A stretch of DNA of 64,000 nucleotides, from the NCBI GenBank assembly GCA_014377525.1, contig JACMPL010000028.1:4492-68491 (forward strand). Reading direction: 5' to 3'. Of the stretch, positions 28,278-47,027 are shown one piece after another (the first letter of the stretch is position 1; every line of letters begins with the position of its first letter). The DNA is from Candidatus Saccharimonadota bacterium (GTDB lineage: Bacteria > Patescibacteriota > Saccharimonadia > Saccharimonadales > UBA4665). Under the pieces are notes generated by a model, which saw nothing but the letters and a program-made list of their open reading frames with translations, was not told the origin of the DNA and made no database searches. Both the position numbers and the translations under genes were made by a program.

Positions 28278-28292
28278 GGTCGTACTATCCTA

Positions 28293-28589
28293 TCATGGTC
28301 GATGAACTTTATTGTTTTTCGTATCAGCCGAGTCGGCTTTTTTGTCAACTTTTTGTTCGAAGTTGTCGGCTCGTTGTTTGGCTTTATCGTAGATGGCTGT
28401 TAGTGCAGACCTGGCAGTATCGGCGTGTTTGCGGGCCCATTCGAATTCTTGAGCTAACAGTAAAAGCGCCAAGAAACATACCAGCAAACCAGGGCCAGGC
28501 AGCGGAATCAAAATAATACCTACAGTAAATAATGGTATCCCGATAATCAAGATACCAGCTCGGCGTGCAAATTTTACAGTACTCCCCAT
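28293..28589 (-). CDS. PGPGW-motif small membrane protein
   Basis: The sequence IPLPGPGLLVCFLALLLLAQEFEWARK matches the family, and there are two TM helices. Confidence 0.6.
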   Translation of the reverse strand: MGSTVKFARRAGILIIGIPLFTVGIILIPLPGPGLLVCFLALLLLAQEFEWARKHADTARSALTAIYDKAKQRADNFEQKVDKKADSADTKNNKVHRP

Positions 28590-28625
28590 CCTCTTATTAT
28601 ACAGTAGTCGTTGTGCTAGTAGGCG

Positions 28626-31184
28626 TTAGTTATGACTTTGATATTGCCGTTGCAAATATGAACCATAGGTCGGCGTGTTATTGCACGCTTCAACTGTTTG
28701 ACAGACGCCAGCATCATACTGTGCGTAGGCTAGGAACGCCGCAAGTTTTTCGGTATACAGTGGACCATCGACGTTGGTAGGCGACTCACGAATTGGATAA
28801 CCGACGTAGTACGTTATTGGAATGCTGACTAAATTATCGAATATCTGTTGTTGGTAGACGTCATGAGCTAGGGTTACGAACCGTCCAACGCTGCCATGGT
28901 CACTGTGATCGCGCAGAATGTTCCCCTGAGCACTACTTTGAGTGCGAATCTCGGCAGGATTGTACAATGCCATGATCTCTGCCAGGGCCGACTCGAGTCC
29001 AGATTTTGTATAGCCGGATTGTTGATCAACCGAACTAATATTGGCGATTCGCCCCGTCTCGAGTCTATTCAGACTTTGATGTTTAGTTTTAGCAAAGCCA
29101 CCCCCGTCTAGCCCGCCATCCGGTAGACGCATGAATATCAGCGACACCTCGGGATGATCTTTGAGAGTTGAGACACGGACGTATTCGCCCCGTGGGAGTC
29201 GTACGATTCGTTGCAGCCAATCATTTTGGGAGTGCAGTAGCGTTGCATAGGCCGCTTGCGAGCCCTGCTCTCTCGACGCTAAGTAAGCAGCGCCATAACC
29301 GCTGTCACCGGCTGTCACGTAGACTGTCCGAACGCAACGGCCAGATTGTAAATCAACAGTAATATCCGGATTCATAAACAAAATATCATCGTCTTCGTGT
29401 GCAACAAAGTTCATGGTAGTCGCATTACGACAGTCGGTGCCTGGTAGCGCCGATGCAGCTATTGGCAAAATCGTCGCCGTATCGATAGGCTCAGTAGCGT
29501 TCGGCTTCTTAGATTTATCAAAGAATAGCAATAATTCAGTCGGTTTAGAGAGCGTACCGGCAATGAGCACACTCTCGTTCGGTGTGCCATAAGCCGTCAC
29601 GACTTGCGTTATCGAACACTGCGGAAAATCCGTCAGGCTTTTGTCGAGTGACAGCAAGTAAGCAAACGGTTTTGTATCAATATTTTGGCGCCAAACTTGG
29701 CTCACGAGTACCGTTCTGAGCTGCGTACAGGTAGCCAGCGGCTGTATCGTAACTGGCCGCCGAGATTGCTGACGTATTGGTAAGACTCGCCAGTAATCAC
29801 CGACTAATACCGGCATTTTACGCGAAGTCAGTACCTGTATGATTCGATGATTACGGCTATTAATCTGCTGATACGCTGCCTGCTGAGATTGTGAAGTCTG
29901 GCTAGCAACGTACACACCGATACCGATGCTGCCCATCAAAATTACGCCGCAAACTAGCACTCTGTTGGCTAACAATCGCTTGCTACGAAGCATTACTGCT
30001 AGACAAATGAAGCCCGCAAACCAGATAATTGTCATGTACCGGCTGTCGACCGCGTAATAATGATTACTAACGACATACAGCGCTATCGAAGCTAGTGCGG
30101 TCCAAGCTAACATCGCTGCAAGGAAGACGGCTTTTGGTGGCTTGGCCTTCGGGCTTTTAGCCAAGAATGCTCGTAATAAAATCTGACCAACTGCATAATT
30201 ACAGGCTAGAAGTATGCTAATGTTGACAACGTAGGCTGGGCCACCAACCGATAAAAGCCGGTGCAAGACTGCCGATGGTACTTGGGTAATCTGAGTCGCG
30301 TCATATGCCGGATTTGCACCAAAGTTCGTAAACAGACCGGCTATGGCATAGATTATGCCTACTAAGACTGTTTTTAAGTTAGTGACAAGTCCAAACGGTG
30401 CAGCAACAGTGACAATTCCGACGACATGCGTCGACTTCAGACCAACAATAATTAACCCGCTTAGCAGTGCGGCTAAGATGCTACCACCAAACCACCGCGC
30501 GGTGGCGGCAATGTAAGCAGTGCGGTTACGAACGGCGTAGGCAATCAGCGCGACTAACGATGCACCGATGCTCAAGCTCAAAAATAGCTGGTCGCTGACT
30601 ATAAGTAGCCCGAGTAGCGTAGCACCGGCAGCATAGCGCCAAAACTGTTTGCGTTCGGGCCACGTTAGCAACACGATAGACAGGATAAACACAATATACT
30701 CGATGTTGCGCGTTGCCACCATCGCCATATTTGTCGGCAAAATACCACCGACATATGGCTGAGCTGGGATCAATAATAATGTAGAAGCGAGCGCTAAACA
30801 AAGTGTTCCAAACACCAATGGACGGCGCTCAATTCGACGAAGCAACAGCGCCATCGAACCGATAGTAACCAGCATGACAGCAACCGTCATTGCGCGGTAG
30901 CTGGCATTACTAGAGTGGAATAAATGGATTATAAAAAATAACGGCCACTTAAGTAGGAACGTATGTTGGCTCGGGTACTGCGCACCGTGCATGACGTGGC
31001 TATTTTCGAAAAGATACGGGTTCACGATTTGATCGGCGTTTGATTGCTGAACAAGCGCACCCTGGTAGCCGACGAAGGCGGCGACCATACTTAGCAGTAC
31101 AACGGAAAGGAGCGCGTAGCCATTTTTAAAACTGCGGTGCGCAGTAATACGGACCAGTACTGGTGGTAGAACGATCGGCGGCAT
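28626..31184 (-). CDS. Fusion protein: polytopic membrane domain of about 450 aa (GT-C-like by context only) plus a PIG-L/LmbE deacetylase domain
   Basis: The N-terminal half has about 12-14 hydrophobic helices. The C-terminal half has NFVAHEDDDILFMNPD and DHSDH. Its ATG shares 1 nt with the TAA stop of the upstream GtrA gene. Confidence 0.7.
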   Translation of the reverse strand: MPPIVLPPVLVRITAHRSFKNGYALLSVVLLSMVAAFVGYQGALVQQSNADQIVNPYLFENSHVMHGAQYPSQHTFLLKWPLFFIIHLFHSSNASYRAMTVAVMLVTIGSMALLLRRIERRPLVFGTLCLALASTLLLIPAQPYVGGILPTNMAMVATRNIEYIVFILSIVLLTWPERKQFWRYAAGATLLGLLIVSDQLFLSLSIGASLVALIAYAVRNRTAYIAATARWFGGSILAALLSGLIIVGLKSTHVVGIVTVAAPFGLVTNLKTVLVGIIYAIAGLFTNFGANPAYDATQITQVPSAVLHRLLSVGGPAYVVNISILLACNYAVGQILLRAFLAKSPKAKPPKAVFLAAMLAWTALASIALYVVSNHYYAVDSRYMTIIWFAGFICLAVMLRSKRLLANRVLVCGVILMGSIGIGVYVASQTSQSQQAAYQQINSRNHRIIQVLTSRKMPVLVGDYWRVLPIRQQSRRPVTIQPLATCTQLRTVLVSQVWRQNIDTKPFAYLLSLDKSLTDFPQCSITQVVTAYGTPNESVLIAGTLSKPTELLLFFDKSKKPNATEPIDTATILPIAASALPGTDCRNATTMNFVAHEDDDILFMNPDITVDLQSGRCVRTVYVTAGDSGYGAAYLASREQGSQAAYATLLHSQNDWLQRIVRLPRGEYVRVSTLKDHPEVSLIFMRLPDGGLDGGGFAKTKHQSLNRLETGRIANISSVDQQSGYTKSGLESALAEIMALYNPAEIRTQSSAQGNILRDHSDHGSVGRFVTLAHDVYQQQIFDNLVSIPITYYVGYPIRESPTNVDGPLYTEKLAAFLAYAQYDAGVCQTVEACNNTPTYGSYLQRQYQSHN

Positions 31185-31612
31185 TAGTGTGTTTTTACAG
31201 CCTGCTCAATCGGCCTGAATATCCGAGTCTTGTACAGATAGAAATTCCAGATCGTGGTTATCGCCAGAGCTGAGGTTCGAGATACTGTTGGCGATACGCT
31301 ACTGGACAAGAATTTTACAACCAAAATAGTAAACCCGAAATTGAACAGAACTAGCAGTGCAAATGCAGTTATTTGTGGCAATAATACCCGAGCGTGCACC
31401 CGCTTATCCCGAAAAGTAACTAATTTAGTGAGTACGAACGATACGCTTAGTCCAAGCCAAAAACTAATGCCCACTGCTACGACGTCACTTGCCCCGGCTC
31501 GCTGTGCGATCAGAATAATTAGTAACTCCAACAGATAGACGGAGCCGCCGATCAATAAATACCGAACGCCTGGCCGCTGCGACACTTCAACTAATTTTTT
31601 CACGAGCTCCAA
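31184..31612 (-). CDS. GtrA-family membrane protein (putative polyprenyl-phosphate-sugar flippase)
   Basis: The protein is 142 aa with four TM helices and a GtrA-like N-terminus (VRYLLIGGSVYLLEL). It sits between the GT2 gene and the large membrane protein. Confidence 0.7.
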   Translation of the reverse strand: MELVKKLVEVSQRPGVRYLLIGGSVYLLELLIILIAQRAGASDVVAVGISFWLGLSVSFVLTKLVTFRDKRVHARVLLPQITAFALLVLFNFGFTILVVKFLSSSVSPTVSRTSALAITTIWNFYLYKTRIFRPIEQAVKTH

Positions 31613-32579
31613 CTTCTGATCTTACCTGTTTTATCGATTCTACGGCATCGACGATATAAAGCGGACGATTCTGCGTTTCGGCGTGGATGTGCGACAAATA
31701 CAGTCCGAGTATGCCTTGCGACATGAGCAAGCAACCGACAAGAAACAGAATAAGAATTAAGACGAAGGCCCCGCCGGTAATTCGCAGACTTAGCGGATCA
31801 CCAATCAACATTTCAAACGTCATAAATATACCCAGAATCACTGATATTGGCAGCACGATCACGCCCAATATAGCCGTAACATATAACGGTGTGTTGCTGA
31901 GCGAAACGAAGCTATCGATGGCTAGTTTGACAAGTTTTGTGACCGAATAAGTTGACGTCCCGCTCATCCGCTCCCGAGCTGCAAATGAAATATAAAACTG
32001 CTGATATCCAAGCCAATCGATGAGCCCGCGGGTTATGCGTCGCCGTTCGCTTAGCCGCAAGAATTCGATCTGAACCGACTGGTCTATCAGCCGAAAATCA
32101 GTCGTACCAGCTACTACCTCGCTACTACTTAGCCGCTTGAGCAGCATGTAAAATAATTTTGAGCCGTATTTTTTGACGAAACCTTCGTGCTCGTTCGCCG
32201 TTCTTACACCGGTTACAATCATGGAGCCATTCTGCCAAGCAGCCAGAAAATCCGGGATACGTTCAACCGGGTGTTGACCATCGGCGTCGATCATCATAAT
32301 TGCAGCACCACTGGCGTGTTCGATACCGGCAGTCGTGGCAACTTCTTTGCCAAAATTACGGGTTAACGCAATGATGTTGACTGCCCTGTCGTGCTCGGCA
32401 ATTTTTTTTATTTTTAATTGGGTGTCGTCAGTGGAACCATCGTTACAATAAATTATCTCGTAGGTAACACCGCTTAACTTCAACACGGCAATTAATGAAG
32501 CGTGAAATTGATTGATGCCAGCCGCTTCATTATGAAGCGGCACGACTATCGATAAAACTGGCGAATATGATTTTGACAT
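31587..32579 (-). CDS. Family 2 glycosyltransferase of the polyprenyl-phosphate sugar synthase type (GtrB/ArnC/DPM1-like)
   Basis: Supporting blocks are LSIVVPLHNEA, YEIIYCNDGSTDDT and MMIDADGQHP. It also has the two C-terminal TM helices typical of GtrB-like enzymes. Confidence 0.85.
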   Translation of the reverse strand: MSKSYSPVLSIVVPLHNEAAGINQFHASLIAVLKLSGVTYEIIYCNDGSTDDTQLKIKKIAEHDRAVNIIALTRNFGKEVATTAGIEHASGAAIMMIDADGQHPVERIPDFLAAWQNGSMIVTGVRTANEHEGFVKKYGSKLFYMLLKRLSSSEVVAGTTDFRLIDQSVQIEFLRLSERRRITRGLIDWLGYQQFYISFAARERMSGTSTYSVTKLVKLAIDSFVSLSNTPLYVTAILGVIVLPISVILGIFMTFEMLIGDPLSLRITGGAFVLILILFLVGCLLMSQGILGLYLSHIHAETQNRPLYIVDAVESIKQVRSEVGAREKIS

Positions 32580-33972: not shown

Positions 33973-33992
33973 GCTACGTTCCCATCATAAAA

Positions 33993-34029
33993 TCCGCTCC
34001 TATACTATCTTATCTGAGCGGACTTTTTG
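33993..34029 (+). terminator. Hairpin TCCGCTC...GAGCGGA followed by CTTTTTG
   Basis: It is a 7-bp stem with a 16-nt loop and a T-run, located 20 nt after the helicase stop. Confidence 0.5.
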
Positions 34030-34058
34030 TTATACTATACTCAAATAAGGAGTACACC

Positions 34059-34283
34059 GTGGGCATTTCAGGATTTGGACTTATCTATATAATTATCGGA
34101 TTTATCGTAGCCATTAACAGAGGCTACTTGAGCAACATTACTACGATAGGGTCGCTCATATCGGCGTTGCTGGCAATACTCTTGTGGCCGCTGCTATTCT
34201 TCGGCATCAGCCTGCATATATCTTTCAGTGCTAGTCATTCGGGCTACTCGCTCTGGACAAGTTACTTGCTACGACGTCACTAG
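34059..34283 (+). CDS. Small membrane protein (hypothetical)
   Basis: It has a GTG start with AAGGAG 7 nt upstream, and two hydrophobic helices. Confidence 0.45.
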   Translation: MGISGFGLIYIIIGFIVAINRGYLSNITTIGSLISALLAILLWPLLFFGISLHISFSASHSGYSLWTSYLLRRH

Positions 34284-34405
34284 TTATGATTGCAGAGTAC
34301 GGCCGATACAAATAAACTTGACGGCTACTGTAAATAGTCTTTTTAGCGAAAGTTAATATTTATTTAACAATTGTAGTAGATACTGTTTGGTAGGACCTAC
34401 CCATC

Positions 34406-34806
34406 ATGAAAAATACTTCTAATCAAAGACGATCACAGCATTAGTACCGTCCTCACACAAGTACTGTCAAACGATTACGCGATTGATACTGCCTTCACTG
34501 GCAAAGCCGGTTTGAGTAAAGCTGGACTGTATAACTACAATCATCGTGCTAGATCTAAAGCTGCCTGACATTTTCGGATTAACTGTTTGTCGACGACATC
34601 GTTAAAGTAAGTATAAAGGCCCAATCCTCATACTATCGGCGAATCGATGGACAAACACGGTCGATGTACACGTAAAATATCTGCGCGATAAGATCGATCG
34701 ACCATATGGTAGCTCATTACTACAAAAGGTTCATGGTGTCGGCTATAAAATAGATGTATCAAGGCAAACAAGTAGTTTAATGGACACAGCGACAGGGTCA
34801 CAGTAG
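34406..34806 (+). pseudogene. Decayed OmpR-family response regulator
   Basis: Hand translation gives ATG plus an A5 run (+1 shift), then KILLIKDDHSISTVL..AIDTAFTGKAGL. A second shift leads into IIVLDLKLPDIFGLTVCRRHR, followed by an in-frame TAA (34603-34605). PILILSA is then joined directly to TVDVHVKYLRDKIDRPYGSSLLQKVHGVGYKI, so most of the effector domain is deleted. Confidence 0.7.
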
Positions 34807-34814
34807 ACGATTGG

Positions 34815-35277
34815 CTACGAATTATTTTGTACCTTATCAATCAAAGCGTAGATTAAAAGGGACCGTTGCCAAGCGTACCTAACGCACCTTCCAAAACTAC
34901 TATTTAAAATGAATATACCCACTCCCCGACAGCTACTTACCAAGTATCTTTTATTTATCAAGCCCTATGATGGTCCAGCCGATAAACAGCTTGATCGCAG
35001 CGGTAGCTGCTTCGGGGCTACCGTAGATCGCCAGTTAGCGTCTTGGCATAATCGGGAATGGTCACTAATACTATTTGATTTTAGCGGCCAGTTGATTAGG
35101 CCAGCGACCGGATTAGTCCATCGATTCGCCGATAGTATAGGAATCGCCAAGCGGCAAGTAGCGGAGGCTACCACTGCTAAGTTTGGGCTGCGAACGAGTC
35201 TGAATATGCACAAAATATACCAGGCCGATCCCCAAAACGGCGACAATTACAACATCAGAGAGGCCACTGAGCGTCAC
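34815..35277 (-). pseudogene. Decayed SGNH/GDSL hydrolase
   Basis: Hand translation of the minus strand from GTG 35277 gives a TM helix, then YLPLGDSYTIGES (block I), an in-frame TAA (35113-35115) and RWPNQLAAKI. Further stops and frameshifts follow, with fragments IVLVTIPDYAKT and GYIHF (block V-like). Confidence 0.6.
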
Positions 35278-35751
35278 CTAACGGCCAGTTCCTGGTGTCG
35301 GAGTTACGTTGACCGGCGCGACATTTATAATCAAGTTTGCCGATGGCCGATACAGTATCGCTTTTTGCTGCTGACTGTACACGAATGTTATATCGCCGTC
35401 CTTAGCTTGGACATAAAATTTCTGACCTTGTAACTTGGCGACATCTTTGACGGTTACGATCGTTGGCACCTCGTTTGTCGGTAGTAAGATCAATTTACCC
35501 AATCTAACTGTTTGAGCTGCATAGTACTGCTGCCCATTATTTTGCAGCTTGCTCTTAGCCTGCTCGTACTGCACGAACAGAAAAATACTAACTAGCGCCA
35601 AGATGGCCAGTAACACCCAGGGTAATTGTTTTTTTGATACCACGGTTTTAGGTTGCGGTAGTTTTAGTTTACGCTTTGGAGTTTTTGGAGGCTCGACCGG
35701 ATCGGTCGGCGGCATATACGTTCTAGTCGAAGATGTACTTGTCGATCGCAT
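35278..35751 (-). CDS. N-terminally TM-anchored hypothetical protein
   Basis: It has a Pro/Lys-rich N-terminus, one TM helix (WVLLAILALVSIFLFV) and an extracytoplasmic beta-rich domain of about 90 aa. Confidence 0.5.
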   Translation of the reverse strand: MRSTSTSSTRTYMPPTDPVEPPKTPKRKLKLPQPKTVVSKKQLPWVLLAILALVSIFLFVQYEQAKSKLQNNGQQYYAAQTVRLGKLILLPTNEVPTIVTVKDVAKLQGQKFYVQAKDGDITFVYSQQQKAILYRPSANLIINVAPVNVTPTPGTGR

Positions 35752-35798
35752 ACTGTCCCTTGTTTGTGACTGTATTGTAGCAAACTTGCGTGCGAATG

Positions 35799-38426
35799 CT
35801 AATGCTTACCGTCCGTGACGCTAGTTTTAGGTACCGTAACGATCGGATTTGTGGTAGTCAGCGGTTCATTTGCTCCAAGCGCTAACCAACTGAGCATCAT
35901 TGCAGCAGTGGCTGGTTGCTGTAACACGATGTCGAAACCTTTTGTTGTTACCTGGTCGATTGTCGACGCCGTAAAACTGCCATCATTCGCCGTCAGCGAA
36001 ATAATTGGGGCGCTATCATACTCCTTCTTAAAAGTAACATGCAGCTTAGTTTCACCAGCTTTAAACTGGGCATAACCGGCACTGTCACTGGAAACTGCCA
36101 GATGGCCTTGGAAGCTAACGTCTTGCCCAAAAATAGTTTTACCGACAAACGTTGCCAGCTTCTGAAAGGTCGTGAGTCCACCGAAATTTGCGTCACCGGC
36201 AACGCTGAGCCCGCCACTTAAATTAGCCGTTTCTATGTTAAGATTGCCGCTTAAGGTCGCATTGCCTGAATTATTGATAGAAGCTACCGTTTTCCCCGTT
36301 GCGTCGGTGATTGTCAATCCTTGATCAGTCACGGCTACACTCGACGAGTTACTCGTCTTAGGCTGAGTAACCGGCATTTTTGATGCCGTAGCGGACATGG
36401 GACTACTAATGCTTTCAGCGGATGCGTCAGGGCTGGCCACGGCTGCGGTACTTGTTGGAACAGCCAAGCTATCGGTTGCGCTGCCAGCAGTCGTATCGGT
36501 ACTGAGGTCAGCTTGTGTCTGCTGAGTAGCTACTACACTCGACGTGTCGGTTGCAGGCGTGATATTGTCATCCTGCCAGTAGCGGTAGTAGTCCATGTCA
36601 AAGTTTGATGTCGTATTTATCGTATGAATAACATGCATTTCTGGCGCGATATCAACCGTTGGCAAGGCACCCGTAACAGTTCCACAGTCTACCAGATTTA
36701 CACCATCCGTAGCATCACTATCGATAAAAAACCGAACGGTCGTAGCATCAACGACTACAATGCGGCCAGTTGCAAAGTTTGTACTAATTGTTCCGGGGCA
36801 TGTCACGGGCGTGCCAATAGTTGCTCCTGCCGAACGAACTATTCCTGTCCAGCCGGTTGCACCCGTACTATTATTACTTGCAAAGAAAATTCCGTTAGTC
36901 GGTAAGGTGTCATTGGCAGTTGGCGCTACAGCCGTGTCGGTTGCACCCCAGAAAAAATCGTCGGTAACACGCACGATACTTGGTCGAACTTTCATTTGGA
37001 TGATCGGCAGATTCGTTAAGTTGATCGGTTTATCGAGCGTTCCTGCTGTCGCGCCTAATCCTAATAAGGCACCTCGGTTAGCGGTTGTGCCAGTTGTCAT
37101 TCTAAAATAACCACCGAGTGTACTAATATCGGAGCTACTGACTGTGTTACCTCCACCGTTAGCAAAATACCAGTGATTATCATCGCCGACGTTTCGGTTA
37201 TTGGTCGTAGCAGCAGCAAGTGAAGCGACAAACTCTTGGCTGTACTGGTCGGTTGTACCAATGAATGCGCCACTCGAAAATACGCCACCGAAATTACCAC
37301 CAGCACTGCCACCAGAGCCAACTGTGGTCGTAGCGCCTGTTAATAAACTTGGATTAAAGTAATCGTAACCTTTGCCGATAATTTCACCACTGGCATTAAT
37401 CGTGGTGGTAGTGCCAATGGTAGTAGTGCCGTTGCCCGGTAGTAATGCCAGATTCGCAAAATTACCATTTGAGCCGCCACCGACTTTTAATGTCGTGCCG
37501 CTGTTTTGTAACGCCGTTAATGGCGCGGCGGCCGTCGTGCCAGTACCAGCCCCTCCCAGATCAAGACATATCGAGGTAAAAGAACCACAGGCACTGCTCG
37601 TCAAGTACGACGAGTACGAACCGGTTCCGTCATTATAGCCAAAAAACAGTGGACGCGATCCAGTAGCCTGACTCGTAACTACCACCAGGCTTGGCGCGTA
37701 GCCGCTAGGGTAAGCGGGCGGGGCTGTGATCTGACCGTTATTCAGCAGTAGCTGATTAGAAATATAGCTGGCTGACTGAATGTTGACCTGACCGCTTGTG
37801 GCAATACCGGTAGCAGCAGTGATCGCCCCAGTACTACTGACGGCTAAGGCTCCACTGTTGATGCTGAGCGAGTTGCCTTGCAGTGCTCCGGCCGAGGTGA
37901 TGCCACCACTAACATTTATCGCACCAGTTTGTTGTGCGCTTGGCGATAATTGAACGAATTGGCTGGCGCTCAGTCCACCGACTTTATCGGCATTGAAAGC
38001 ATAAGGAATGGACTGTAGTTGAACGCGCGGCGTCATTTCGCCAGCCGCGTCACCATTGAAGGTAATGCCGAGGTACAAGCTATTACTGACGCTGAAATCG
38101 ATTGGCGTGTTGTTGTTACAAGCTGCCGCTACGAAGAACGAACAGCTACTTCCCAGGTTGACCTGAAACGTTCCGGCCACAACTGTCACGCTTGACTGCG
38201 TTTCAGTCCACAGAGCAGTACCCGCGCTGCTAACCGAATATAATTTAAATACAAAGCCGTACGTGCCATCGGCCATATTGGTGCCATCGGCCTTCACGAC
38301 CTTGCCCTGAAAGCTCATGGTCTGCGGATTAACAGCGTGCGCAGCTGGAAATGTGACTACAGAAAACGCTAGCAAAAATAGGCTGGTGATTACTGCTAAG
38401 GCGCCGAATACTCGAACACGACCCAC
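35799..38426 (-). CDS. Large secreted surface protein (875 aa), fibre/adhesin-like
   Basis: After the signal peptide (..FPAAHA) comes an N-terminal module MSFQGKVVKADGTNMADGTYGFVFKLYS..ALWTE..VTVVAGTFQVNLG...PRVQLQSIPYAFNADKVGG, then Gly/Ser/Thr/Ala-rich repeats and a jelly-roll-like middle. The C-terminal module YDSAPIISLTANDG..VTTKGFDIVLQQ...LSWLALG is tentatively H-type-lectin-like. Confidence 0.65.
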   Translation of the reverse strand: MGRVRVFGALAVITSLFLLAFSVVTFPAAHAVNPQTMSFQGKVVKADGTNMADGTYGFVFKLYSVSSAGTALWTETQSSVTVVAGTFQVNLGSSCSFFVAAACNNNTPIDFSVSNSLYLGITFNGDAAGEMTPRVQLQSIPYAFNADKVGGLSASQFVQLSPSAQQTGAINVSGGITSAGALQGNSLSINSGALAVSSTGAITAATGIATSGQVNIQSASYISNQLLLNNGQITAPPAYPSGYAPSLVVVTSQATGSRPLFFGYNDGTGSYSSYLTSSACGSFTSICLDLGGAGTGTTAAAPLTALQNSGTTLKVGGGSNGNFANLALLPGNGTTTIGTTTTINASGEIIGKGYDYFNPSLLTGATTTVGSGGSAGGNFGGVFSSGAFIGTTDQYSQEFVASLAAATTNNRNVGDDNHWYFANGGGNTVSSSDISTLGGYFRMTTGTTANRGALLGLGATAGTLDKPINLTNLPIIQMKVRPSIVRVTDDFFWGATDTAVAPTANDTLPTNGIFFASNNSTGATGWTGIVRSAGATIGTPVTCPGTISTNFATGRIVVVDATTVRFFIDSDATDGVNLVDCGTVTGALPTVDIAPEMHVIHTINTTSNFDMDYYRYWQDDNITPATDTSSVVATQQTQADLSTDTTAGSATDSLAVPTSTAAVASPDASAESISSPMSATASKMPVTQPKTSNSSSVAVTDQGLTITDATGKTVASINNSGNATLSGNLNIETANLSGGLSVAGDANFGGLTTFQKLATFVGKTIFGQDVSFQGHLAVSSDSAGYAQFKAGETKLHVTFKKEYDSAPIISLTANDGSFTASTIDQVTTKGFDIVLQQPATAAMMLSWLALGANEPLTTTNPIVTVPKTSVTDGKH

Positions 38427-38530
38427 TGATACTTCCTCTAAATTTTTATTTTAAGATTTTGTATCAAAATTGTATCAAATTCTACAACCAAACACAAGCA
38501 TTTTACAGGTTGCGGGGCGGCGTTAGTTGT

Positions 38531-39472
38531 TCAGTTTGCGTTCACAGGATTGCGTCGTTTATAGCGGCGAAAACCAACTACTATCAGCAGGCCGACAATC
38601 AATATAAAGACGAGATAAATTTTTAAACCGGCGAAACGTAACCCAATAGTTTTATTACGAGTCACAGCCAAACCATCGTAGCGATAATCGACCGATACAG
38701 TATACGGACCGGGCAATTGGATTCCGGTTTTAACTGGGGTGAGTTTTACGTAGATTTGCCGATACGTTTCGGGTAGCACATAGTTCGAATCATCATTGAT
38801 GACACCGCGCGCGACTACCTGCCCGGCTGAATTTTTGAGGCTGACAACGCCCCTTGGTATAACGTGAACATTACCTGGATTTTGAAATCGTAAGCGAACG
38901 GTATTTGGCAAATGGAGCCAATTACCGTTTGGAGCAATGTCTTTCAGCGATAAGTCAAAATGCTCACCACCATGCTTGGTAACGAGAATCAGGCTCGTCA
39001 GTTGCTGACTTATTTGAACGTTATTACTACCCTTTATGGACTCGCTATCGATAGACGCAATCACTGCACCATAATGACCGCCCGGCTGCAACGAGCTACG
39101 GTTATCTATCGTTACATCAACGGCTTTCGACTCACCCGGTTCGAGCAGTACACTATTGGTTGCCAGCGTTAACCACGACGTCAGACCATACTTCTGCGAA
39201 TATTCGGCATTACCGGCAAACAAAATGCCACCGCTGTCGTTTAGCGAACCAAAATCTTGGGGCGATAAGTGTAATTGCTGAGCGCTCAGCATGTTGTTTG
39301 TTATGGTCAGCGTAAAAGTTTTCGAGGTGTCACCGGGATTTATTTCGACCGGTTGTAAAAAGGGGCTGAGTGTTATGCCCTGGAGCGGCGCGGCCGAAAC
39401 TGCTGTGGTCGGCCAGCCCAGTGTTATCAGACCACCGATTATTACCCCGAGTAGCAGCAGCTTATTTCGCAT
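38531..39472 (-). CDS. DUF916/DUF3324-like cell-surface protein with a C-terminal TM anchor (paralogue B)
   Basis: It has a signal peptide, two beta-rich domains (..LTITNN.., GGHYGAVIAS, RLRFQNPGNVHVIPRGVVSLKN, PGPYTVSVDYRYDG), a single C-terminal helix and the basic tail RRYKRRN. The start at ATG 39472 overlaps the upstream gene by 11 nt. Confidence 0.5.
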   Translation of the reverse strand: MRNKLLLLGVIIGGLITLGWPTTAVSAAPLQGITLSPFLQPVEINPGDTSKTFTLTITNNMLSAQQLHLSPQDFGSLNDSGGILFAGNAEYSQKYGLTSWLTLATNSVLLEPGESKAVDVTIDNRSSLQPGGHYGAVIASIDSESIKGSNNVQISQQLTSLILVTKHGGEHFDLSLKDIAPNGNWLHLPNTVRLRFQNPGNVHVIPRGVVSLKNSAGQVVARGVINDDSNYVLPETYRQIYVKLTPVKTGIQLPGPYTVSVDYRYDGLAVTRNKTIGLRFAGLKIYLVFILIVGLLIVVGFRRYKRRNPVNAN

Positions 39473-40517
39473 TACGCGTTGGCTTACGAATTCCTTTGGC
39501 TTTACGCAACACAGTCCGAAAGATAACAAAAGTCCCAAATCCAAGCACCAGAATTATAACTCCAGCGCCCAACAAAATCTTCCATGGCAGTACCCAGAAC
39601 GTGACAGACGACTCCATTGGTACGTCCTGTTTACCATCATCGTATACGACGAGTAACTTAGCAGTGTACTTACCGAATCGTAGCTTGGAAACCTGAGAAA
39701 AATCGTATGTAAGTTCTTGGACTGGTTTGGCCCTCTTGTCATATACTGGTTTGCCGTTGACGACCTTATCCTTGAATTTTGGGAACCCACTGGTCCAGGG
39801 TACGCTGTAAACGCGATTAGAAGCTGGCAAGACGCTGCTACCGACGTCATTAAAGTTAATCGTCGTCACCGGTTTACCACCCTTGGTAATAAAAATATTC
39901 CCTGTCGGCGCCAGGTAGATATTGCCGGTATTGCGGAGCTTAACCGTAAAATCAACTGGCACATATTCGTATAGTTTCTTCTCAACGGTAAAATCGAGTA
40001 GGTTCAACGAGCGCTTATCGTCTACGCCCCGCACATCAAGCAGTACCAGCGTCGCGGCTGATCCCTTGACGCTGCTTTGGCCCGCAGTGTCACCAGGTTG
40101 ATTGGCTCGACTGAATGTGACTGCCAGGTAGTAGCCGAGAGAAGCTTCTGGTGGAACTTTGATTGTCATCTTAACCGTCTTCCAGACGTTCGGCTCGGCC
40201 ACGAACTGGCTTGGTGTGAACGTCACCCAGTTGGCATAAATATCTTTCGGCGTAAGATCGAACAGGTTCGGCTGACCGGATTCGCCGGTTGCGCCAAACT
40301 TCATTAGGCCCATTTTGATGGTCTCATTCTGCGGGTTGAGATTCTTCATACGTAGTTCAGTAGTAACCGTTTTACCGGGAGTCGTGTTGAGTTTAATCGG
40401 CAACGGCGAAGTAATAATGTTAAAGCCATCGGCCGCTTGAACCGATGGATACTTAACTAGCCCTAGCAGACCTAACATGAGCGCTAGTGCGCAGAACCCG
40501 AGTAGCATCCGCTTCAT
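39462..40517 (-). CDS. DUF916/DUF3324-like cell-surface protein with a C-terminal TM anchor (paralogue A)
   Basis: The architecture matches paralogue B: signal peptide (..PSVQA), TELRMKNLN, LGYYLAVTF, VKLRNTGNIYLAPTGNIFITKG, FGKYTAKLLVVYDDG, a C-terminal helix and a basic tail. Confidence 0.5.
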   Translation of the reverse strand: MKRMLLGFCALALMLGLLGLVKYPSVQAADGFNIITSPLPIKLNTTPGKTVTTELRMKNLNPQNETIKMGLMKFGATGESGQPNLFDLTPKDIYANWVTFTPSQFVAEPNVWKTVKMTIKVPPEASLGYYLAVTFSRANQPGDTAGQSSVKGSAATLVLLDVRGVDDKRSLNLLDFTVEKKLYEYVPVDFTVKLRNTGNIYLAPTGNIFITKGGKPVTTINFNDVGSSVLPASNRVYSVPWTSGFPKFKDKVVNGKPVYDKRAKPVQELTYDFSQVSKLRFGKYTAKLLVVYDDGKQDVPMESSVTFWVLPWKILLGAGVIILVLGFGTFVIFRTVLRKAKGIRKPTRNAK

Positions 40518-40577
40518 TGCGCTTAAGTATAGACTAGTAATCAGGGGTCAGCAAGTTAATCTTGCTGACCAGGTCGC

Positions 40578-41633
40578 TTAGTAGTTACCAGCCGCGACAA
40601 CCGTCAGAACATCAGTGTAATCGTTGGCGTAGCCGATGGTATTAGCAACCGTAACACGTTCTTTGAGGTTGACGGTATCGGCGTTGGTGTAGCCGTTACG
40701 AGAAACAAATGAGGCGAAGTTAGTGGTATTGAATGAGCCACCGATAGTGCCACTGGCACCAACGTTGTATTCGCTGTTGTACGTCAGCGCACCGGTTGCG
40801 GATGTAGCAGCCGCACCAGTTGTTGGCACAAACAAATAGTTGGTAGTTCCTGGAGTTGCCGTGTCGGGAGTTCCATCAAACGTACCGGTCGTAATCGGCG
40901 TCGCTGGGCTTGTCGCTGATGTCAGGGAGGCGTTAGCTGATTTAACGTAGGCAGTGTAGCCGAGTGGAGAGTTAGTTCCGACAACCATATTGACTCCAGG
41001 TGATGTCTTGATGGACGTCGAGTCAGCTTGAGGAACTGTATCGGCGTTGGCACTGAGTGAGAAGTTGAAATTCGGCGCGACTGAGGCCGAGACCGTGACT
41101 TGGTCGGCATTAGCCGTTGCACCGGTGATGTACACTGGCGTCGTCGTCAGATCGATAGTCGTACCACCACTGTTTTGGCTTTCAACTGTAGAGTTGTATT
41201 GCCCGGCAGTTGCTGGGTTTTGAATCGTTCCCGAAGGAATCGTAAAGCCATATAGAGTTGTGTTGTTAAGGCTGGCTGAGGTTAAACCGGAGACGACAAT
41301 ATCACGAGTGCCGGAAGTAGCGGCTGCGGTCAATGTTCCTGGAGGAGCTGTTATGCCTGTTGGCGACTGTGGGAAACCAGTTGTACCGACGGCTGGCGTA
41401 CCTGTCGTAATGACAAAACCAGTTGGAAACGCTACGCGGATCTTGGAAACGGCAGTTGGTGTCGTGTTTAGCTTAAATGTTACTAATAAATCATTTCCGG
41501 TTGTCGCACTAATGCCGAGGCGACCTAAACGAATACTGGCTTGGCTCAGTTGAGCGGCTCCGGCGGCTGCAGGTAGTAGTAGGGATGCGATCAGTCCGAC
41601 CGCGACGAGGTAATATTTTTTATTTTGTAGCAT
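40578..41633 (-). CDS. Secreted Gly/Ser/Thr-rich beta protein ending in ..DYTDVLTVVAAGNY (WxL/SCPU-like module, tentative)
   Basis: After the signal peptide (..AAGAA) the C-terminal half shares conserved blocks with 41747-42793. The protein has no Cys and no LPXTG motif. Confidence 0.5.
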   Translation of the reverse strand: MLQNKKYYLVAVGLIASLLLPAAAGAAQLSQASIRLGRLGISATTGNDLLVTFKLNTTPTAVSKIRVAFPTGFVITTGTPAVGTTGFPQSPTGITAPPGTLTAAATSGTRDIVVSGLTSASLNNTTLYGFTIPSGTIQNPATAGQYNSTVESQNSGGTTIDLTTTPVYITGATANADQVTVSASVAPNFNFSLSANADTVPQADSTSIKTSPGVNMVVGTNSPLGYTAYVKSANASLTSATSPATPITTGTFDGTPDTATPGTTNYLFVPTTGAAATSATGALTYNSEYNVGASGTIGGSFNTTNFASFVSRNGYTNADTVNLKERVTVANTIGYANDYTDVLTVVAAGNY

Positions 41634-41746
41634 AGTCTTTTTTTATATTAATGATTAATACATTAATGGTACATTGCTGAGATTCAAAGTCAATACAACT
41701 TACGTTTAAATAACTGCATTAATAACAACGTTTTACCACTACGAGG

Positions 41747-42793
41747 CTAAAAATTGCCGGCGGCAATAAATGTCAGAACGTCCTGATAATCGTTGGCGGC
41801 GACATCGATAGACGAGGCTTTGGCTTTGAGGGCCAGCGTTCCAGCACCGTTGGTAACTGGGGCCGACGACGAATAGAGGCTCCGAATAGTACTATCGATA
41901 ATGCCGACATTGTTGCCACTACCGTTATAGGGGCTGAGGGCGTTAAACGGCCCACCGCTACCAACGCTAGCACTAGTACTCTGGGCACCGAAGCCTTTAC
42001 TAGCGCCACTTAAATCGGTGCTGATTGCGTTAATTATGTTACCGGTTGAGCCGCTTAGCAGTCCACCATTTTGGCTTTTAATATAGACATTGGCGCCGCT
42101 AACACCATTTGTCGACACCGCCGTGTTGATTGTTTGGCCACTGCTAGCGATCGTTCCGGCGCTCAATGTACCAAGTCCAATACTGAATGGCGGCGTAGAC
42201 TGAGCACTCGTTACTAGGCTGAATGTGATCGATGGCGCCGCGGTTTGTAGTGCATTGGTCGGGCCGAAGGCAGATTCACTAAACTTCCCTTGCGTAGCTT
42301 TTGCCTTGAACGTGTAGGTCGTACTTGGTTGCAAACCGATGACCAGGCTGCCAGCACCAGCGCCTAGTGCGACGTACGTTTGATAACTGCTCAGCGTCAG
42401 CGTAGAGGTTATCGTACCATCAGGTAATAAATATTTGATATCGCTGGCAAAACCGTCACTACTGACGGCAACTAGATAGGTGGCATCGGTTGGATTACCC
42501 TGTGTATCGAGTACAAAATGGAGTTTGTTATAATATTGCCCGCCGCTCGTGTCGATGCTAGCGATTTTGGGGACGTTTGCCTGCTGTGTTTCGACGTAGC
42601 CGGGTTTGGTAGTTACGTTCGCAGTACTACCGGTTATGCCCGACAGTTCACCGGCAGTACCTTCTAGCGCGTAAGTCGCTGTCGAAGAGTTTGTTACGCC
42701 ACCACTTCCAAAGCCATAACTATTTAATTTATAGTTAGAGGTTGCTGGCAAAGCCGCAAACAGCAGTACCCCCATCAGTGCGCTTAGTTTCAT
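41747..42793 (-). CDS. Secreted Gly/Ser/Thr-rich beta protein ending in ..DYQDVLTFIAAGNF, with an FN3-like middle
   Basis: The start is placed at ATG 42793 (MKLSALMGVLLFAALPATS). It has an SNYKLNSYGFGSGG..TATYALEGTAGE N-terminal repeat, an FN3-like GLQPSTTYTFKAKAT block, and a C-terminal module paralogous to 40578-41633. Confidence 0.5.
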   Translation of the reverse strand: MKLSALMGVLLFAALPATSNYKLNSYGFGSGGVTNSSTATYALEGTAGELSGITGSTANVTTKPGYVETQQANVPKIASIDTSGGQYYNKLHFVLDTQGNPTDATYLVAVSSDGFASDIKYLLPDGTITSTLTLSSYQTYVALGAGAGSLVIGLQPSTTYTFKAKATQGKFSESAFGPTNALQTAAPSITFSLVTSAQSTPPFSIGLGTLSAGTIASSGQTINTAVSTNGVSGANVYIKSQNGGLLSGSTGNIINAISTDLSGASKGFGAQSTSASVGSGGPFNALSPYNGSGNNVGIIDSTIRSLYSSSAPVTNGAGTLALKAKASSIDVAANDYQDVLTFIAAGNF

Positions 42794-42816
42794 ATATATA
42801 CAGTAGCATTTTGCTG

Positions 42817-43461
42817 TTACTGCACCCAATGCCAGTTAGCGAGCAGTGTCTTGATTGTCTTGACCTCCTCGGTATTAGCCCCGCCACCAGCCGATTCGTA
42901 GCCTGAGCGGACGCCGATCGTCGCAATATACCCACCGTGCAGCCAAAAACTAACGGCCCCGGAGGCCTGCGTATCGCTGGCAATAGCAATCTGTTCGCCC
43001 GCAACCGTCGTTTGTTCAAATGTGTATCGAGCTGTATCGGCCATCCGAATAGCGTAGCTGGTATTCGATTGCAGTCCGCCGTCGACGGCGCTCGACACAG
43101 CTACCGAAATTATCTGGGTGCCGCTAGCGCTGGCATGTGTCAACATCGAACTAGCTAACACACCGGGAACGGTGGGGATATTCGTCTGCACGGCAAATCC
43201 GGCTGGCGTGTCGAGCGTGTAGTATTTCTCATCAATTTGCCCGGCTGGCACAACGGGCGCACTATTTTTCTTGCTGGTCGCCGGTAGTATCGTCGCACTC
43301 GATCCGTGAGCCGGCACTCCCAAAATATGCACTAAGTAGCTCCCAATAACGATTATTAGAAATCCACCAATCAGCATCAGCTTGGCTTTCCGGCTGATCA
43401 CTCGATATTTTTTTGGCTTTTTTTTGGTAGGTTCGAGCGTGGGTTTCGGCGTTGATTCCAT
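42817..43461 (-). CDS. N-terminally TM-anchored hypothetical protein, first gene of the surface cluster
   Basis: It has a Lys-rich N-terminus, one TM helix (LMLIGGFLIIVIGSYLV) and an extracytoplasmic domain of about 160 aa. Confidence 0.45.
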   Translation of the reverse strand: MESTPKPTLEPTKKKPKKYRVISRKAKLMLIGGFLIIVIGSYLVHILGVPAHGSSATILPATSKKNSAPVVPAGQIDEKYYTLDTPAGFAVQTNIPTVPGVLASSMLTHASASGTQIISVAVSSAVDGGLQSNTSYAIRMADTARYTFEQTTVAGEQIAIASDTQASGAVSFWLHGGYIATIGVRSGYESAGGGANTEEVKTIKTLLANWHWVQ

Positions 43462-43564: not shown

Positions 43565-44104
43565 ATGGTTGAAGGAAGCGCAAAAAATAAGAAAAAAACT
43601 AGTAAGCCTAATAAGAGCCTGCAAGGTGCCGAATTTTCATCCGTGTCTAGCGCACCACCCAAAGCTCATATGTCGCCGTCATGGTTGCAACAATCAAAAG
43701 CTATAATTGTCATTCCATTGCTGATCTCCGTGGCATTTAGCCTAACGTATTTTCATTACAAAATTACTGGCTACAAAACTGCCCAGTGCACCGCACCTAT
43801 TACTAAGTCCATCGAGGCCTCTCGTAAATCTATCAGTTCAGAGCAGTCACTTCCCGTAACATTTTCTGATCAAGCGACTGCACCTGCTCTGAACGTAACT
43901 CCATCGTCAAACCAAGCTACGACGGTGAACCCCGAGACTAATGCAAGTAATGATGCGCTCAGCAAGCCATCGACCGCTAACTCAGCAGAAGCACCAATCG
44001 AAGCATCGAAAAACGGTATCGACTTGTTTAAACAATTTGACTCATCCAGTGACACTCCTCGTGTCCAAACACGCCCCCTGAATATGGATCTTTACAAACT
44101 GTAA
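43565..44104 (+). CDS. TM-anchored Ser/Thr/Ala-rich hypothetical protein
   Basis: It has a Lys-rich N-terminus, one TM helix and a low-complexity exterior. Confidence 0.4.
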   Translation: MVEGSAKNKKKTSKPNKSLQGAEFSSVSSAPPKAHMSPSWLQQSKAIIVIPLLISVAFSLTYFHYKITGYKTAQCTAPITKSIEASRKSISSEQSLPVTFSDQATAPALNVTPSSNQATTVNPETNASNDALSKPSTANSAEAPIEASKNGIDLFKQFDSSSDTPRVQTRPLNMDLYKL

Positions 44105-46235: not shown

Positions 46236-46595
46236 TTACTTGGTGAGCTTTGGCCAGTAAACGCGGGCCACGACATCGGCCTGGCGGAGCCAGCCAAAGT
46301 GCCGGCTATCAGTACTGGCTAGCAGGTTGTCACCGACCACGAATATGTGACCTTTCTCGATACGCTCGATGCGTTTCACTTTTTCTTTGCCATGGTGGTT
46401 AACAATCACCACTTGTCCTGGCCGTAGGCGCTTAAAAAGTGGTGAGGCTAACAGTATTTGGCCAGGTGACAGCTTCGGATACATACTCCGTCCGACTACT
46501 CGGCGGACAATAAAGATATGAGCTTCCTTAGCCTTTTTTGGTAGCCCAGAAAATCTCTGCGATTTCATCGATTTGCTCCAATAATTTTTGGCCAT
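46236..46595 (-). CDS. sodX: S26-family signal-peptidase-like protease, NiSOD maturation protease candidate
   Basis: It has VVGRSMYPKL (catalytic Ser) and VVGDNLLASTDSRHFG, and lies immediately downstream of sodN. The start is uncertain between ATG 46595 and ATG 46568, and both overlap the sodN 3' end. Confidence 0.7.
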   Translation of the reverse strand: MAKNYWSKSMKSQRFSGLPKKAKEAHIFIVRRVVGRSMYPKLSPGQILLASPLFKRLRPGQVVIVNHHGKEKVKRIERIEKGHIFVVGDNLLASTDSRHFGWLRQADVVARVYWPKLTK

Positions 46596-46923
46596 CGGCC
46601 GGGTCTAGATGATGCTTACATTCGCTAGCTTGCTTGATGGCTTTCCAAAACTTGTCATGCAGATCTGGATATAGCTCGATGTGCTCCGGCTTGAAATAAT
46701 CCGCCCAAAGCACCATCAAATGATGTTTGACCAGCTCGGCTCGTTCTTCCTTGATAATGATCGCTCTGATTTTATTGTGCTCGTCAAGACCAGGGTACTT
46801 TTCCATAATTCCTTTGACGCTTTGAGCCTCTATCCGAGCTTGAGCTGGATCGTAGACGCCGCAAGGAAGATCGCAGTGCGCGTAAACCGGTTTGATTGTG
46901 AACGGTAATTTCAGTAATTTCAT
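46528..46923 (-). CDS. sodN: Nickel superoxide dismutase precursor
   Basis: A 14-aa leader MKLLKLPFTIKPVYA precedes the Ni-hook HCDLPCGVYDPA. AGGAGG lies upstream of the ATG at 46923. Confidence 0.9.
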   Translation of the reverse strand: MKLLKLPFTIKPVYAHCDLPCGVYDPAQARIEAQSVKGIMEKYPGLDEHNKIRAIIIKEERAELVKHHLMVLWADYFKPEHIELYPDLHDKFWKAIKQASECKHHLDPADGQKLLEQIDEIAEIFWATKKG

Positions 46924-47027
46924 ATTTGTACCTCCTGTGGTAATTTTAATTATACGCCAAATACGCCGCTTAGATGTTAGTAAGCTTACAGAGTATCCAG
47001 ACAATATTCTTGCTATAATGTCATAAC

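Follow-up and report, generated by a model that had tools for sequence, protein, structure and literature searches.

A conserved seven-gene operon of Saccharibacteria for predicted WxLIP-like anchored proteins, secreted proteins with a C-terminal docking-type module and a putative mosaic fibre

We analysed a stretch of 64,000 nucleotides (hereafter the window) from Candidatus Saccharimonadota bacterium (NCBI GenBank assembly GCA_014377525.1, contig JACMPL010000028.1, positions 4,492 to 68,491 of the forward strand), in which the minus strand between positions 35278 and 43461 is filled by seven open reading frames (ORFs), here referred to as G1 to G7. By hydropathy scan, from which all topologies below were taken, this operon was found to encode two small proteins anchored at the N-terminus (G1 and G7), two secreted paralogues (G2 and G3), two paralogues anchored at the C-terminus (G4 and G5), and a putative secreted fibre of 875 amino acids (G6). 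All seven genes were recovered where an earlier reading of the sequence, the original prediction, had placed them, and the membrane topologies and secretion signals that it had assigned agree with our scan. None of the seven proteins scores above the curated threshold of any family in Pfam, NCBIfam or PHROGs. The most likely reading, on which the evidence leaves us evenly balanced, is that the operon forms a non-covalent, membrane-anchored surface adhesin-display apparatus of a monoderm Saccharibacterium, built on the principle of the WxL/Csc clusters of Firmicutes.

The operon was found to be widely conserved. After one genome per species had been scanned with the G4 family, 71 related loci were obtained, and their ORFs were classed against the seven window proteins by BLAST. 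Nearly all the loci are labelled as Saccharibacteria, Saccharimonadales or Saccharimonadia, and at least 60 species-level genomes have the operon, which is kept in Saccharibacteria of both soil and fresh water. The order G1-G2-G3-G4-G5-G6-G7 recurs in relatives, with the cluster genes on one strand in 63/63 loci, and this fixed one-strand order excludes chance juxtaposition. Presence was counted as the loci with the gene over the loci whose flank reaches far enough, with G4 as the reference; the counts are conditional frequencies, because the loci were selected by the presence of G4. The co-occurrence expected in related genomes was observed for G2 (53/54), G3 (56/57) and G5 (58/59). G6 was present in 42/56 loci, an underestimate because many ORFs run off the locus and two loci (L047 and L059) hold divergent G6-like genes. 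G7, located after G6 in relatives, was detected in 29/40 loci, and G1, located upstream of G2 or between G2 and G3, in 25/50 by BLAST, the low count being due to its low sequence conservation. Tandem duplication of G3 or G4 is frequent in relatives, with no strict correlation between the two. In seven loci (L023, L026, L036, L037, L042, L052 and L057) the full operon stands on contigs labelled Parcubacteria, Limnocylindria, Terrimonas, Burkholderiaceae, Shapirobacteria or Bdellovibrionales; these labels probably reflect mis-binning or loose naming of Saccharibacterial contigs.

The two C-terminally anchored paralogues, G4 (39462-40517, minus strand as for all genes of the operon; 351 amino acids) and G5 (38531-39472; 313 amino acids counted from MRNK), each carry a signal peptide, one C-terminal transmembrane helix and a basic tail, and their ORFs overlap by 11 nucleotides, as noted before. 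In G5 the helix covers residues 283-301 (nucleotides 38570-38626), with the basic tail after it. The combination of transmembrane helix and cytoplasmic basic tail indicates that the ectodomain of either protein sits outside the cytoplasmic membrane, tethered to its outer face. The presumed paralogy of the two is real and distant (25% identity, E 1e-8); in the profile-profile comparison by hhalign it was recovered with a probability of 100% and an E of 2e-40, over both domains and the transmembrane helix. The AlphaFold2 model of G4, made from a 73-sequence alignment (pLDDT 89.4, pTM 0.75), consists of a signal-peptide helix (residues 2-19), two beta-sandwiches (34-162 and 171-309) and the transmembrane helix (312-344, nucleotides 39486-39584). 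Both sandwich domains are predicted to be of the immunoglobulin (Ig)-like/PapD-like type. By Foldseek search of the PDB with this model, ranks 1-3 were occupied by crystal structures of the WxLIP of E. faecium (9i1y_A, 9i1y_B and 9i25_C; E 2.2e-10 to 6.3e-10), with target-normalised TM-scores of 0.40-0.44. The entry 9i25 carries the title 'WxLIP bound to long WxL'. The chaperones of chaperone-usher systems scored nearly as well, the next matches being CsuC, CfaA, CupB2, SafB, EcpB, DraB, YadV and FimC (E 8e-10 to 9e-7).

At the level of sequence families, PF06030 (DUF916/WxLIP_PGBD) was matched weakly by the window G5 (18.5 bits, E 0.002; gathering cut-off 27.3) and was not matched by the window G4. 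The same family was the commonest Pfam match of the G5 orthologues (24/57 at E<=0.01, best E 2.2e-6). In the G4 family alignment, which has 73 members including the window G5, PF06030 was detected in only 2/73, and most matches were to the generic fn3_5. The WxLIP motif NQIDKxxxYFDLK was absent by inspection, the mature N-termini being ADGFNIITSPLPIKLNTTPGK in G4 and APLQGITLSPFLQPVEINPGD in G5, and comparison of the G5 sequence with PDB sequences gave nothing relevant. The WxLIP are defined by a signal peptide, DUF916, DUF3324 and a transmembrane helix within 337-365 amino acids, and are always clustered with WxL proteins (PMC10599100). G4 and G5 match this architecture, with a signal peptide, two tandem Ig-like domains and a C-terminal transmembrane helix, when the length is taken as about 320-380 amino acids. 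On the basis of structure and architecture, not of a Pfam threshold, G4 and G5 are thus regarded as WxLIP/PapD-like anchored proteins of a divergent branch. The original prediction had called them DUF916/DUF3324-like, and the leading rank of WxLIP for G4, the PF06030 matches of G5 orthologues and the architecture are in line with that proposal.

The secreted paralogues G2 (41747-42793) and G3 (40578-41633; 351 amino acids) have a signal peptide only and no anchor of their own. G2 had been given 360 amino acids; its start is most likely Met13 (42793), because the resulting 348 amino acids match the lengths of the homologues, and this start leaves a gap of 23 nucleotides to G1 instead of an overlap. 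Their paralogy was confirmed as distant (28% identity, E 8e-6). Both proteins are rich in Gly, Ser and Thr, low in charge, and devoid of Cys and Trp. G3 is identical to the NCBI hypothetical protein H7171_03610, and among close relatives no other protein of the operon is as well conserved. The mature N-termini are highly conserved inside each family; the N-domains differ between the G2 and G3 families, that of G2 having the motif NYxLNSYGFGSGG...YxLEG..GE, and the C-terminal 165 or so residues are common to both. This common part constitutes a module, located at 40581-41078 in G3 (residues ~186-351, starting with AP.F.FSL and ending in ANDYTDVLTVVAAGNY-COOH) and at 41750-42247 in G2 (ending in ANDYQDVLTFIAAGNF-COOH).

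The C-terminal blocks shared by G2 and G3, already pointed out in the original prediction, proved to be far more general, since they were found in 148 G2/G3-type proteins from the 71 loci. In every one of the 148 the module reaches the extreme C-terminus, and the last residue is always aromatic (F in 127, Y in 21). Counted from the end, Asp-14 and Tyr-13 are each conserved in 98% and Thr-8 in 96%, so that the tail can be written as P-A-A-x-D-Y-x-[DE]-x-[LIW]-T-x-[VI]-[AG]-[AS]-[GA]-x-[FY]-COOH with a nearly invariant last strand. As had been seen for the window proteins, W-x-L is missing: it occurs within the last 40 residues in 0/148, the nearest equivalents being F-S-L and [LIW]-T-x. When the module profile was compared with 1.84 billion representative proteins, 838 clusters at 50% identity were detected, 462 of them at E<=1e-10. 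Many are long proteins (545-2564 amino acids) that hold the module, with the same tail, at the extreme C-terminus, some of them with Laminin_G_3 and DUF2341 ectodomains. Three such long proteins are encoded in operons with G3-, G4- and G5-type genes (L073-L075). In addition, three independent clusters fuse a complete G5-like module, including the transmembrane helix and basic tail, with a signal-peptide-like segment and a G2-type protein (P0376/P0517, 707 amino acids; P0385/P0511, 1131/1193 amino acids; P0477, 680 amino acids). Either the genes are truly fused or the gene calls read through; both cases show adjacency and co-expression of the G5-like and G2-type parts.

WxL domains are defined by their strictly C-terminal position, their occurrence on small and large proteins, and their location next to WxLIP (PMC9772566). 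As judged by its C-terminal position, its presence on both small and large proteins and its adjacency or fusion to WxLIP-like anchors, the G2/G3 module behaves as a WxL domain, but, lacking W-x-L motifs and any PF13731 match, it is not counted as WxL. It is in this form that the Csc/WxL gene logic originally proposed for the cluster was upheld. Two further features of these families were observed. The G2-type start, which lies in the window at about 42640-42740 and was also seen in P0407, P0399 and P0376, has the pattern S-x-N-Y-x-L-x-S-[YF]-G-F-G-x-G-G ... S-x-x-Y-x-[LI]-x-G-x-x-G-E, and in the large proteins the big Laminin_G/DUF2341 inserts come after it. In the G3-family alignment, most orthologues have Cys-x-x-Cys at G3 positions 276/279 (GxACSxCTGSL), and the window G3 has GAAATSATGAL, without the pair.

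The G3 model, obtained from a 136-sequence alignment (pLDDT 87, pTM 0.51), shows beta-sandwich domains at about 30-170 and 189-351 with a low-confidence linker between them. Both sandwiches look complete at high confidence, the last strand included. By Foldseek against the PDB, the whole model matched generic tandem Ig-like adhesins (TM-score ~0.2), including integrin alpha legs, MSCRAMMs, antigen I/II, a Saf pilin construct (SafDAA) and YcnI; only generic Ig-like matches were obtained in a viral structure library. The G3 sequence and the family profiles A2, A3 and A4 gave nothing relevant against PDB sequences, and G2 had no match in Pfam, NCBIfam or PHROGs. Identities as TasA, SCPU, type V pilin or S-layer protein were considered for G2/G3 and rejected, as neither sequence nor fold supports them.

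The main rival explanation, to which we give a minor though appreciable probability, is an usher-less chaperone-subunit pilus, in which the tethered PapD-like G4 and G5 would assemble G2 and G3 as pilins by donor-strand exchange into a head-to-tail stalk with G6 as the tip adhesin, the donor being either the terminal strand or the mature N-terminus of G2/G3, both of which are conserved. Like the archaic Csu and class 5 CFA/I systems (with CsuC and CfaA, respectively), the operon has a two-domain PapD-like fold in G4 (Foldseek E 1e-9, target-normalised TM-score of at most 0.57), and its cluster joins chaperone-like proteins, beta-sandwich subunits and a distal adhesin. The near-equal scores of chaperones and WxLIP against the G4 model, the SafDAA pilin among the fold matches of G3, the high conservation of the mature N-termini in each family, the top conservation of G3 among close relatives and a composition typical of structural subunits all speak for such a pilus. 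The aromatic terminus of G2/G3 and the Tyr at -13 can also be likened, from general knowledge, to the conserved C-terminal strand of chaperone-usher pilins. Against it stand the two complete-looking sandwiches of the G3 model, with the last strand in place, and the absence of any pilin, SCPU or TasA family match. As to strand exchange between subunits of incomplete Ig fold, the monomer model points neither way. Unlike soluble chaperones, moreover, G4 and G5 are permanently anchored in the membrane, as WxLIP are, and the module also ends very large multidomain proteins, which suits a docking domain better than a repeating pilin. Chaperone-usher systems differ further in that the operon has no usher, outer membrane or periplasm, and in that its G2/G3 subunits are two-domain proteins without pilin-family match. 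No usher-like gene was detected in the operon or elsewhere in the window, and the only trace was two weak Usher_TcfC matches (best E 0.0046) from the G4-family alignment.

An RNA hairpin located directly 3' of the G3 stop (40518-40577, minus strand) also speaks for the pilus. It has a G+C-rich stem of 10 bp, GGUCAGCAAG/CUUGCUGACC, without a U tract; its folding energy is -18.7 kcal/mol (z -4.5), and 0/200 shuffles were as stable. In 25% of the loci the last G3 is followed by a hairpin with a folding energy of -12 kcal/mol or below, as compared with 3-8% after G2, G5 and G6, and some relatives have true terminator-like structures at this place. Terminator-like hairpins after G3 in 25% of loci would yield an excess of subunits over anchors. 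In the window the hairpin is possibly an attenuator or mRNA stabiliser dividing the secreted-subunit genes from the anchor genes. Scans of the cluster for promoter and terminator consensus gave sites no more numerous than in shuffled sequences.

G6 (35799-38426; 875 amino acids) has a signal peptide and no transmembrane helix. Its residues 23-161 (37944-38360, minus strand) matched NF053851 of NCBIfam over model positions 3-161 of 162 (E 1.7e-13, 50.7 bits; curated cut-off 60), and NF053851 was matched by 5/7 sampled G6 orthologues. This family is the N-terminal domain of the MAT (mosaic adhesive trimer) fibres of Bdellovibrio, and residues 23-161 are a putative base domain homologous to the MAT N-domain. 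Among 43 G6 orthologues of 554-2413 amino acids, the N-terminal ~180 residues are conserved in about 41, the middle (225-650) almost never, and the C-terminal part (~700-865) in about 23; CBM_4_9 or Gly-rich inserts vary by species. Near the C-terminus, residues 796-838 (35913-36041, minus strand) are a possible H-type lectin tip domain, the match to PF09458 being below threshold (E 0.0017, 18.9 bits; cut-off 24). Comparison of the G6 sequence with PDB sequences gave nothing relevant, and no S74 protease/chaperone domain was seen. As judged from its sequence, G6 is thus predicted to be a secreted fibre whose MAT-type base is conserved and whose body and tip are hypervariable and exchange domains. 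Wherever a locus reaches far enough, G6 nearly always comes after G5. Since G6 lacks the G2/G3 module, it is not the counterpart of a 'large WxL' protein that the Csc analogy had led the original prediction to expect.

Fibres of the MAT kind, which are intertwined trimeric beta-prisms, serve Bdellovibrio in the recognition of prey. The MAT fibres of Bdellovibrio bacteriovorus have an invariant N-domain that is presumably bound to an unidentified surface element (Caulton et al. 2024; PMC10769870). G6 resembles them in its homologous N-terminal base, in the hypervariable, swapped middle and tip with lectin/CBM-type modules, and in being secreted without an anchor motif. It differs in its score below the NCBIfam cut-off, its monoderm host of the candidate phyla radiation and the lack of an S74 domain. 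G6 also sits in a conserved operon with candidate docking partners, a setting unreported for Bdellovibrio. MAT-type fibres were first annotated as phage-tail-fibre-like (PMC10769870), and G6 is hypervariable like receptor-binding proteins. That the operon is a tail-fibre module from a prophage or phage, or that unrelated surface proteins stand side by side by chance, is nevertheless barely credible. None of the seven proteins matched a PHROG family, a tblastn search of 50,697 phage genomes with the G6 N-domain gave nothing, and the viral structure library returned for G3 only the generic matches described above. The neighbours of the operon are ordinary chromosomal genes (DEAD helicase, MarR, MFS, NiSOD and GT2/GtrA/PIG-L), and the gene order is fixed in 63/63 loci. 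By these results, phage origin and chance are effectively refuted.

The operon is bordered by the two small membrane proteins. G1 (42817-43461; 214 amino acids) is bitopic, with a basic cytoplasmic N-tail, a transmembrane helix at residues 28-46 and an outside domain of about 165 residues. It belongs to no known family, and 30 orthologues gave no Pfam match. G7 (35278-35751; 157 amino acids) is likewise bitopic, with a Pro/Lys-rich cytoplasmic N-tail, a transmembrane helix at residues 42-60 and an outside domain of about 95 residues; a weak LytR_C match in only 1/30 orthologues was the sole Pfam signal of its family. Paralogy between G1 and G7 was considered, and on comparison the two were found to be unrelated.

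These observations can be set against the WxL/Csc clusters of Firmicutes, in which WxLIP is joined by small and large WxL proteins (Siezen 2006; Hassan & Williamson 2022/2023). Like those clusters, the operon combines an anchor of the same architecture and size, for which WxLIP is the best structural match (G4) and DUF916 the commonest family match (G5 orthologues), with secreted anchorless partners whose common, always C-terminal module is found on small and large multidomain proteins beside the anchor, and all its genes are on one strand. Unlike in those clusters, the module has no W-x-L and no PF13731 match, ends in an invariant aromatic residue and has about 150 residues between its two conserved blocks; the anchors are two paralogues where those clusters have a single one; and the small partners G2/G3 bear an extra N-terminal beta-sandwich. 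Further differences are the two extra N-anchored small membrane proteins G1 and G7, a large adhesin (G6) that is a MAT-type fibre, putatively attached by its N-terminus, in place of a C-terminal-WxL protein, and the host phylum, Patescibacteria. The operon also has no LPXTG protein: in agreement with the original prediction, when the seven proteins and every ORF of the window were scanned with regular expressions, no LPXTG motif and no sortase signature came up.

A cluster of the canonical type is listed for a cultivated relative, Candidatus Southlakia epibionticum ML1, as SEML1_0623-0628 (supplementary tables of Wang et al. 2023, Cell). According to these tables, SEML1_0626 has DUF916-like and Caf1M-like (PapD-like) domains, the best fold match of SEML1_0627 (188 amino acids) is a WxL-domain protein with a CsuE-like domain, and the cluster also holds an LPXTG-like small protein and RCC1/fn3 large proteins. 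All these genes are non-essential by transposon sequencing, and the cluster is not discussed in the text of the paper (Wang et al. 2023). It resembles the window operon in that a Saccharibacterial DUF916-like two-domain protein is accompanied by a small secreted protein with a beta-sandwich and by a large one with repeats, and differs in having one anchor and no MAT-type fibre. WxLIP-type systems in Saccharibacteria were therefore already visible at database level; in the literature searched, no text was found that links DUF916/WxL to Patescibacteria. The original prediction had spoken of an undescribed system. This does not apply to the canonical DUF916 plus WxL-like cluster, already present in the table of Wang et al. 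(2023), and holds for the seven-gene type, whose combination of two anchors, a non-WxL docking-type module, a MAT-type fibre and two extra bitopic proteins is undescribed so far.

If the operon is an adhesin-display apparatus on the WxL/Csc principle, its parts may act as follows. G4 and G5 would keep G2 and G3 in place at membrane and wall: the module that ends G2 and G3 would dock on the WxLIP-like anchors by beta-strand complementation, by analogy with WxLIP-WxL and chaperone-subunit complexes. The conserved last strand and carboxylate would then be part of the docking interface, and the G2/G3 pair would make up a wall-spanning platform. The N-domain of G6 may bind this platform, or G1/G7, and the variable lectin-like tip would be projected outward to reach glycans of host cells or other surfaces.

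Several observations weigh against this proposal. The DUF916 scores of the window proteins are below the gathering threshold, and DUF3324 (WxLIP_HBD) had no match in the window proteins, the 73 G4-family members or the 57 G5-family members. On the partner side, 136 G2/G3 family members gave no WxL (E<=0.1), SCPU or TasA-type match in Pfam. With no PDB sequence match and only generic Foldseek matches besides, the relation of G2/G3 to WxL, SCPU/Csu or TasA that had been envisaged was not borne out. The 50 best Foldseek matches of the G3 model, taken with both domains, did not include the WxL chain of 9i25, and at least one long module protein (P0464, locus L072) lacks a WxLIP-like gene within 8 kb. 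The attachment of G6 is pure inference, and a role of the operon in host attachment is conjectural. The sole experimental data in a relative are the non-essentiality of the Southlakia cluster, which is of the canonical type and different from G1-G7.

The operon could also serve a structural envelope layer, S-layer-like or a wall scaffold, that maintains envelope integrity, with G6 merely co-located. As expected for a core envelope component, it is near-universal and syntenic across Saccharimonadia; G2 and G3 have the composition of abundant structural proteins, and wall glycosylation genes (GT2, GtrA and PIG-L) are nearby. We consider this role improbable, given that G6 follows G5 so regularly and shows the mosaic variation of an adhesin, that large family members carry lectin-like Laminin_G_3, DUF2341 and CBM domains, and that the closest characterised systems, WxL clusters and MAT fibres, are adhesive.

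Of the neighbouring genes, the envelope glycosylation block lies upstream of the operon region, at 27264-32579 on the minus strand, and encodes a TerC/DUF475 membrane protein, an 852-amino acid PIG-L-domain protein, a GtrA-like flippase protein and a family-2 glycosyltransferase. The segment of about 1.3 kb at 33973-35277, which separates G7 from the DEAD-box helicase gene, contains no convincing gene and no Rfam match. Its ORFs are all short: an ORF for a hydrophobic protein of 74 amino acids is present on the plus strand (34059-34283), and another plus-strand ORF of 174 amino acids (34909-35433) runs, antisense, into the 3' end of G7. Divergent from G1, a plus-strand ORF of 179 amino acids (43565-44104) encodes a protein whose N-terminus is basic and which has a single hydrophobic helix and a tail rich in Ser, Thr, Pro and Ala, for which no Pfam match was obtained and no counterpart was found by BLAST of the related loci. 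The nickel superoxide dismutase gene is located at 46528-47004 on the minus strand (Sod_Ni E 8e-44).

Patescibacteria, Saccharibacteria among them, live on host cells to which they are attached. To our knowledge, little is known of how Patescibacteria recognise and hold their hosts beyond type IV pili. With its conservation in at least 60 species-level genomes, its proteins all annotated as hypothetical and its hypervariable adhesin, the operon is a concrete candidate for host or substrate recognition. The G2/G3 module constitutes a new large family of C-terminal docking-type modules, with 838 clusters at 50% identity. If the apparatus is as proposed, the operon would extend the 'anchor plus docking domain' principle of WxLIP/PapD-like proteins beyond Firmicutes, and its proteins are candidate partners for the MAT-fibre base domain, whose partner in Bdellovibrio is unidentified according to Caulton et al. 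(2024). We assign a small probability to a more far-reaching form, a new class of usher-less fibre machine in which the tethered PapD-like G4 and G5 build a wall-spanning stalk of G2/G3 by C-terminal strand exchange and this stalk is the surface receptor for MAT-type N-domains. Were this true, chaperone-usher pili, WxL complexes and MAT adhesins would be joined in one evolutionary and mechanistic series, and Saccharibacteria would possess a host-recognition organelle that is independent of type IV pili.

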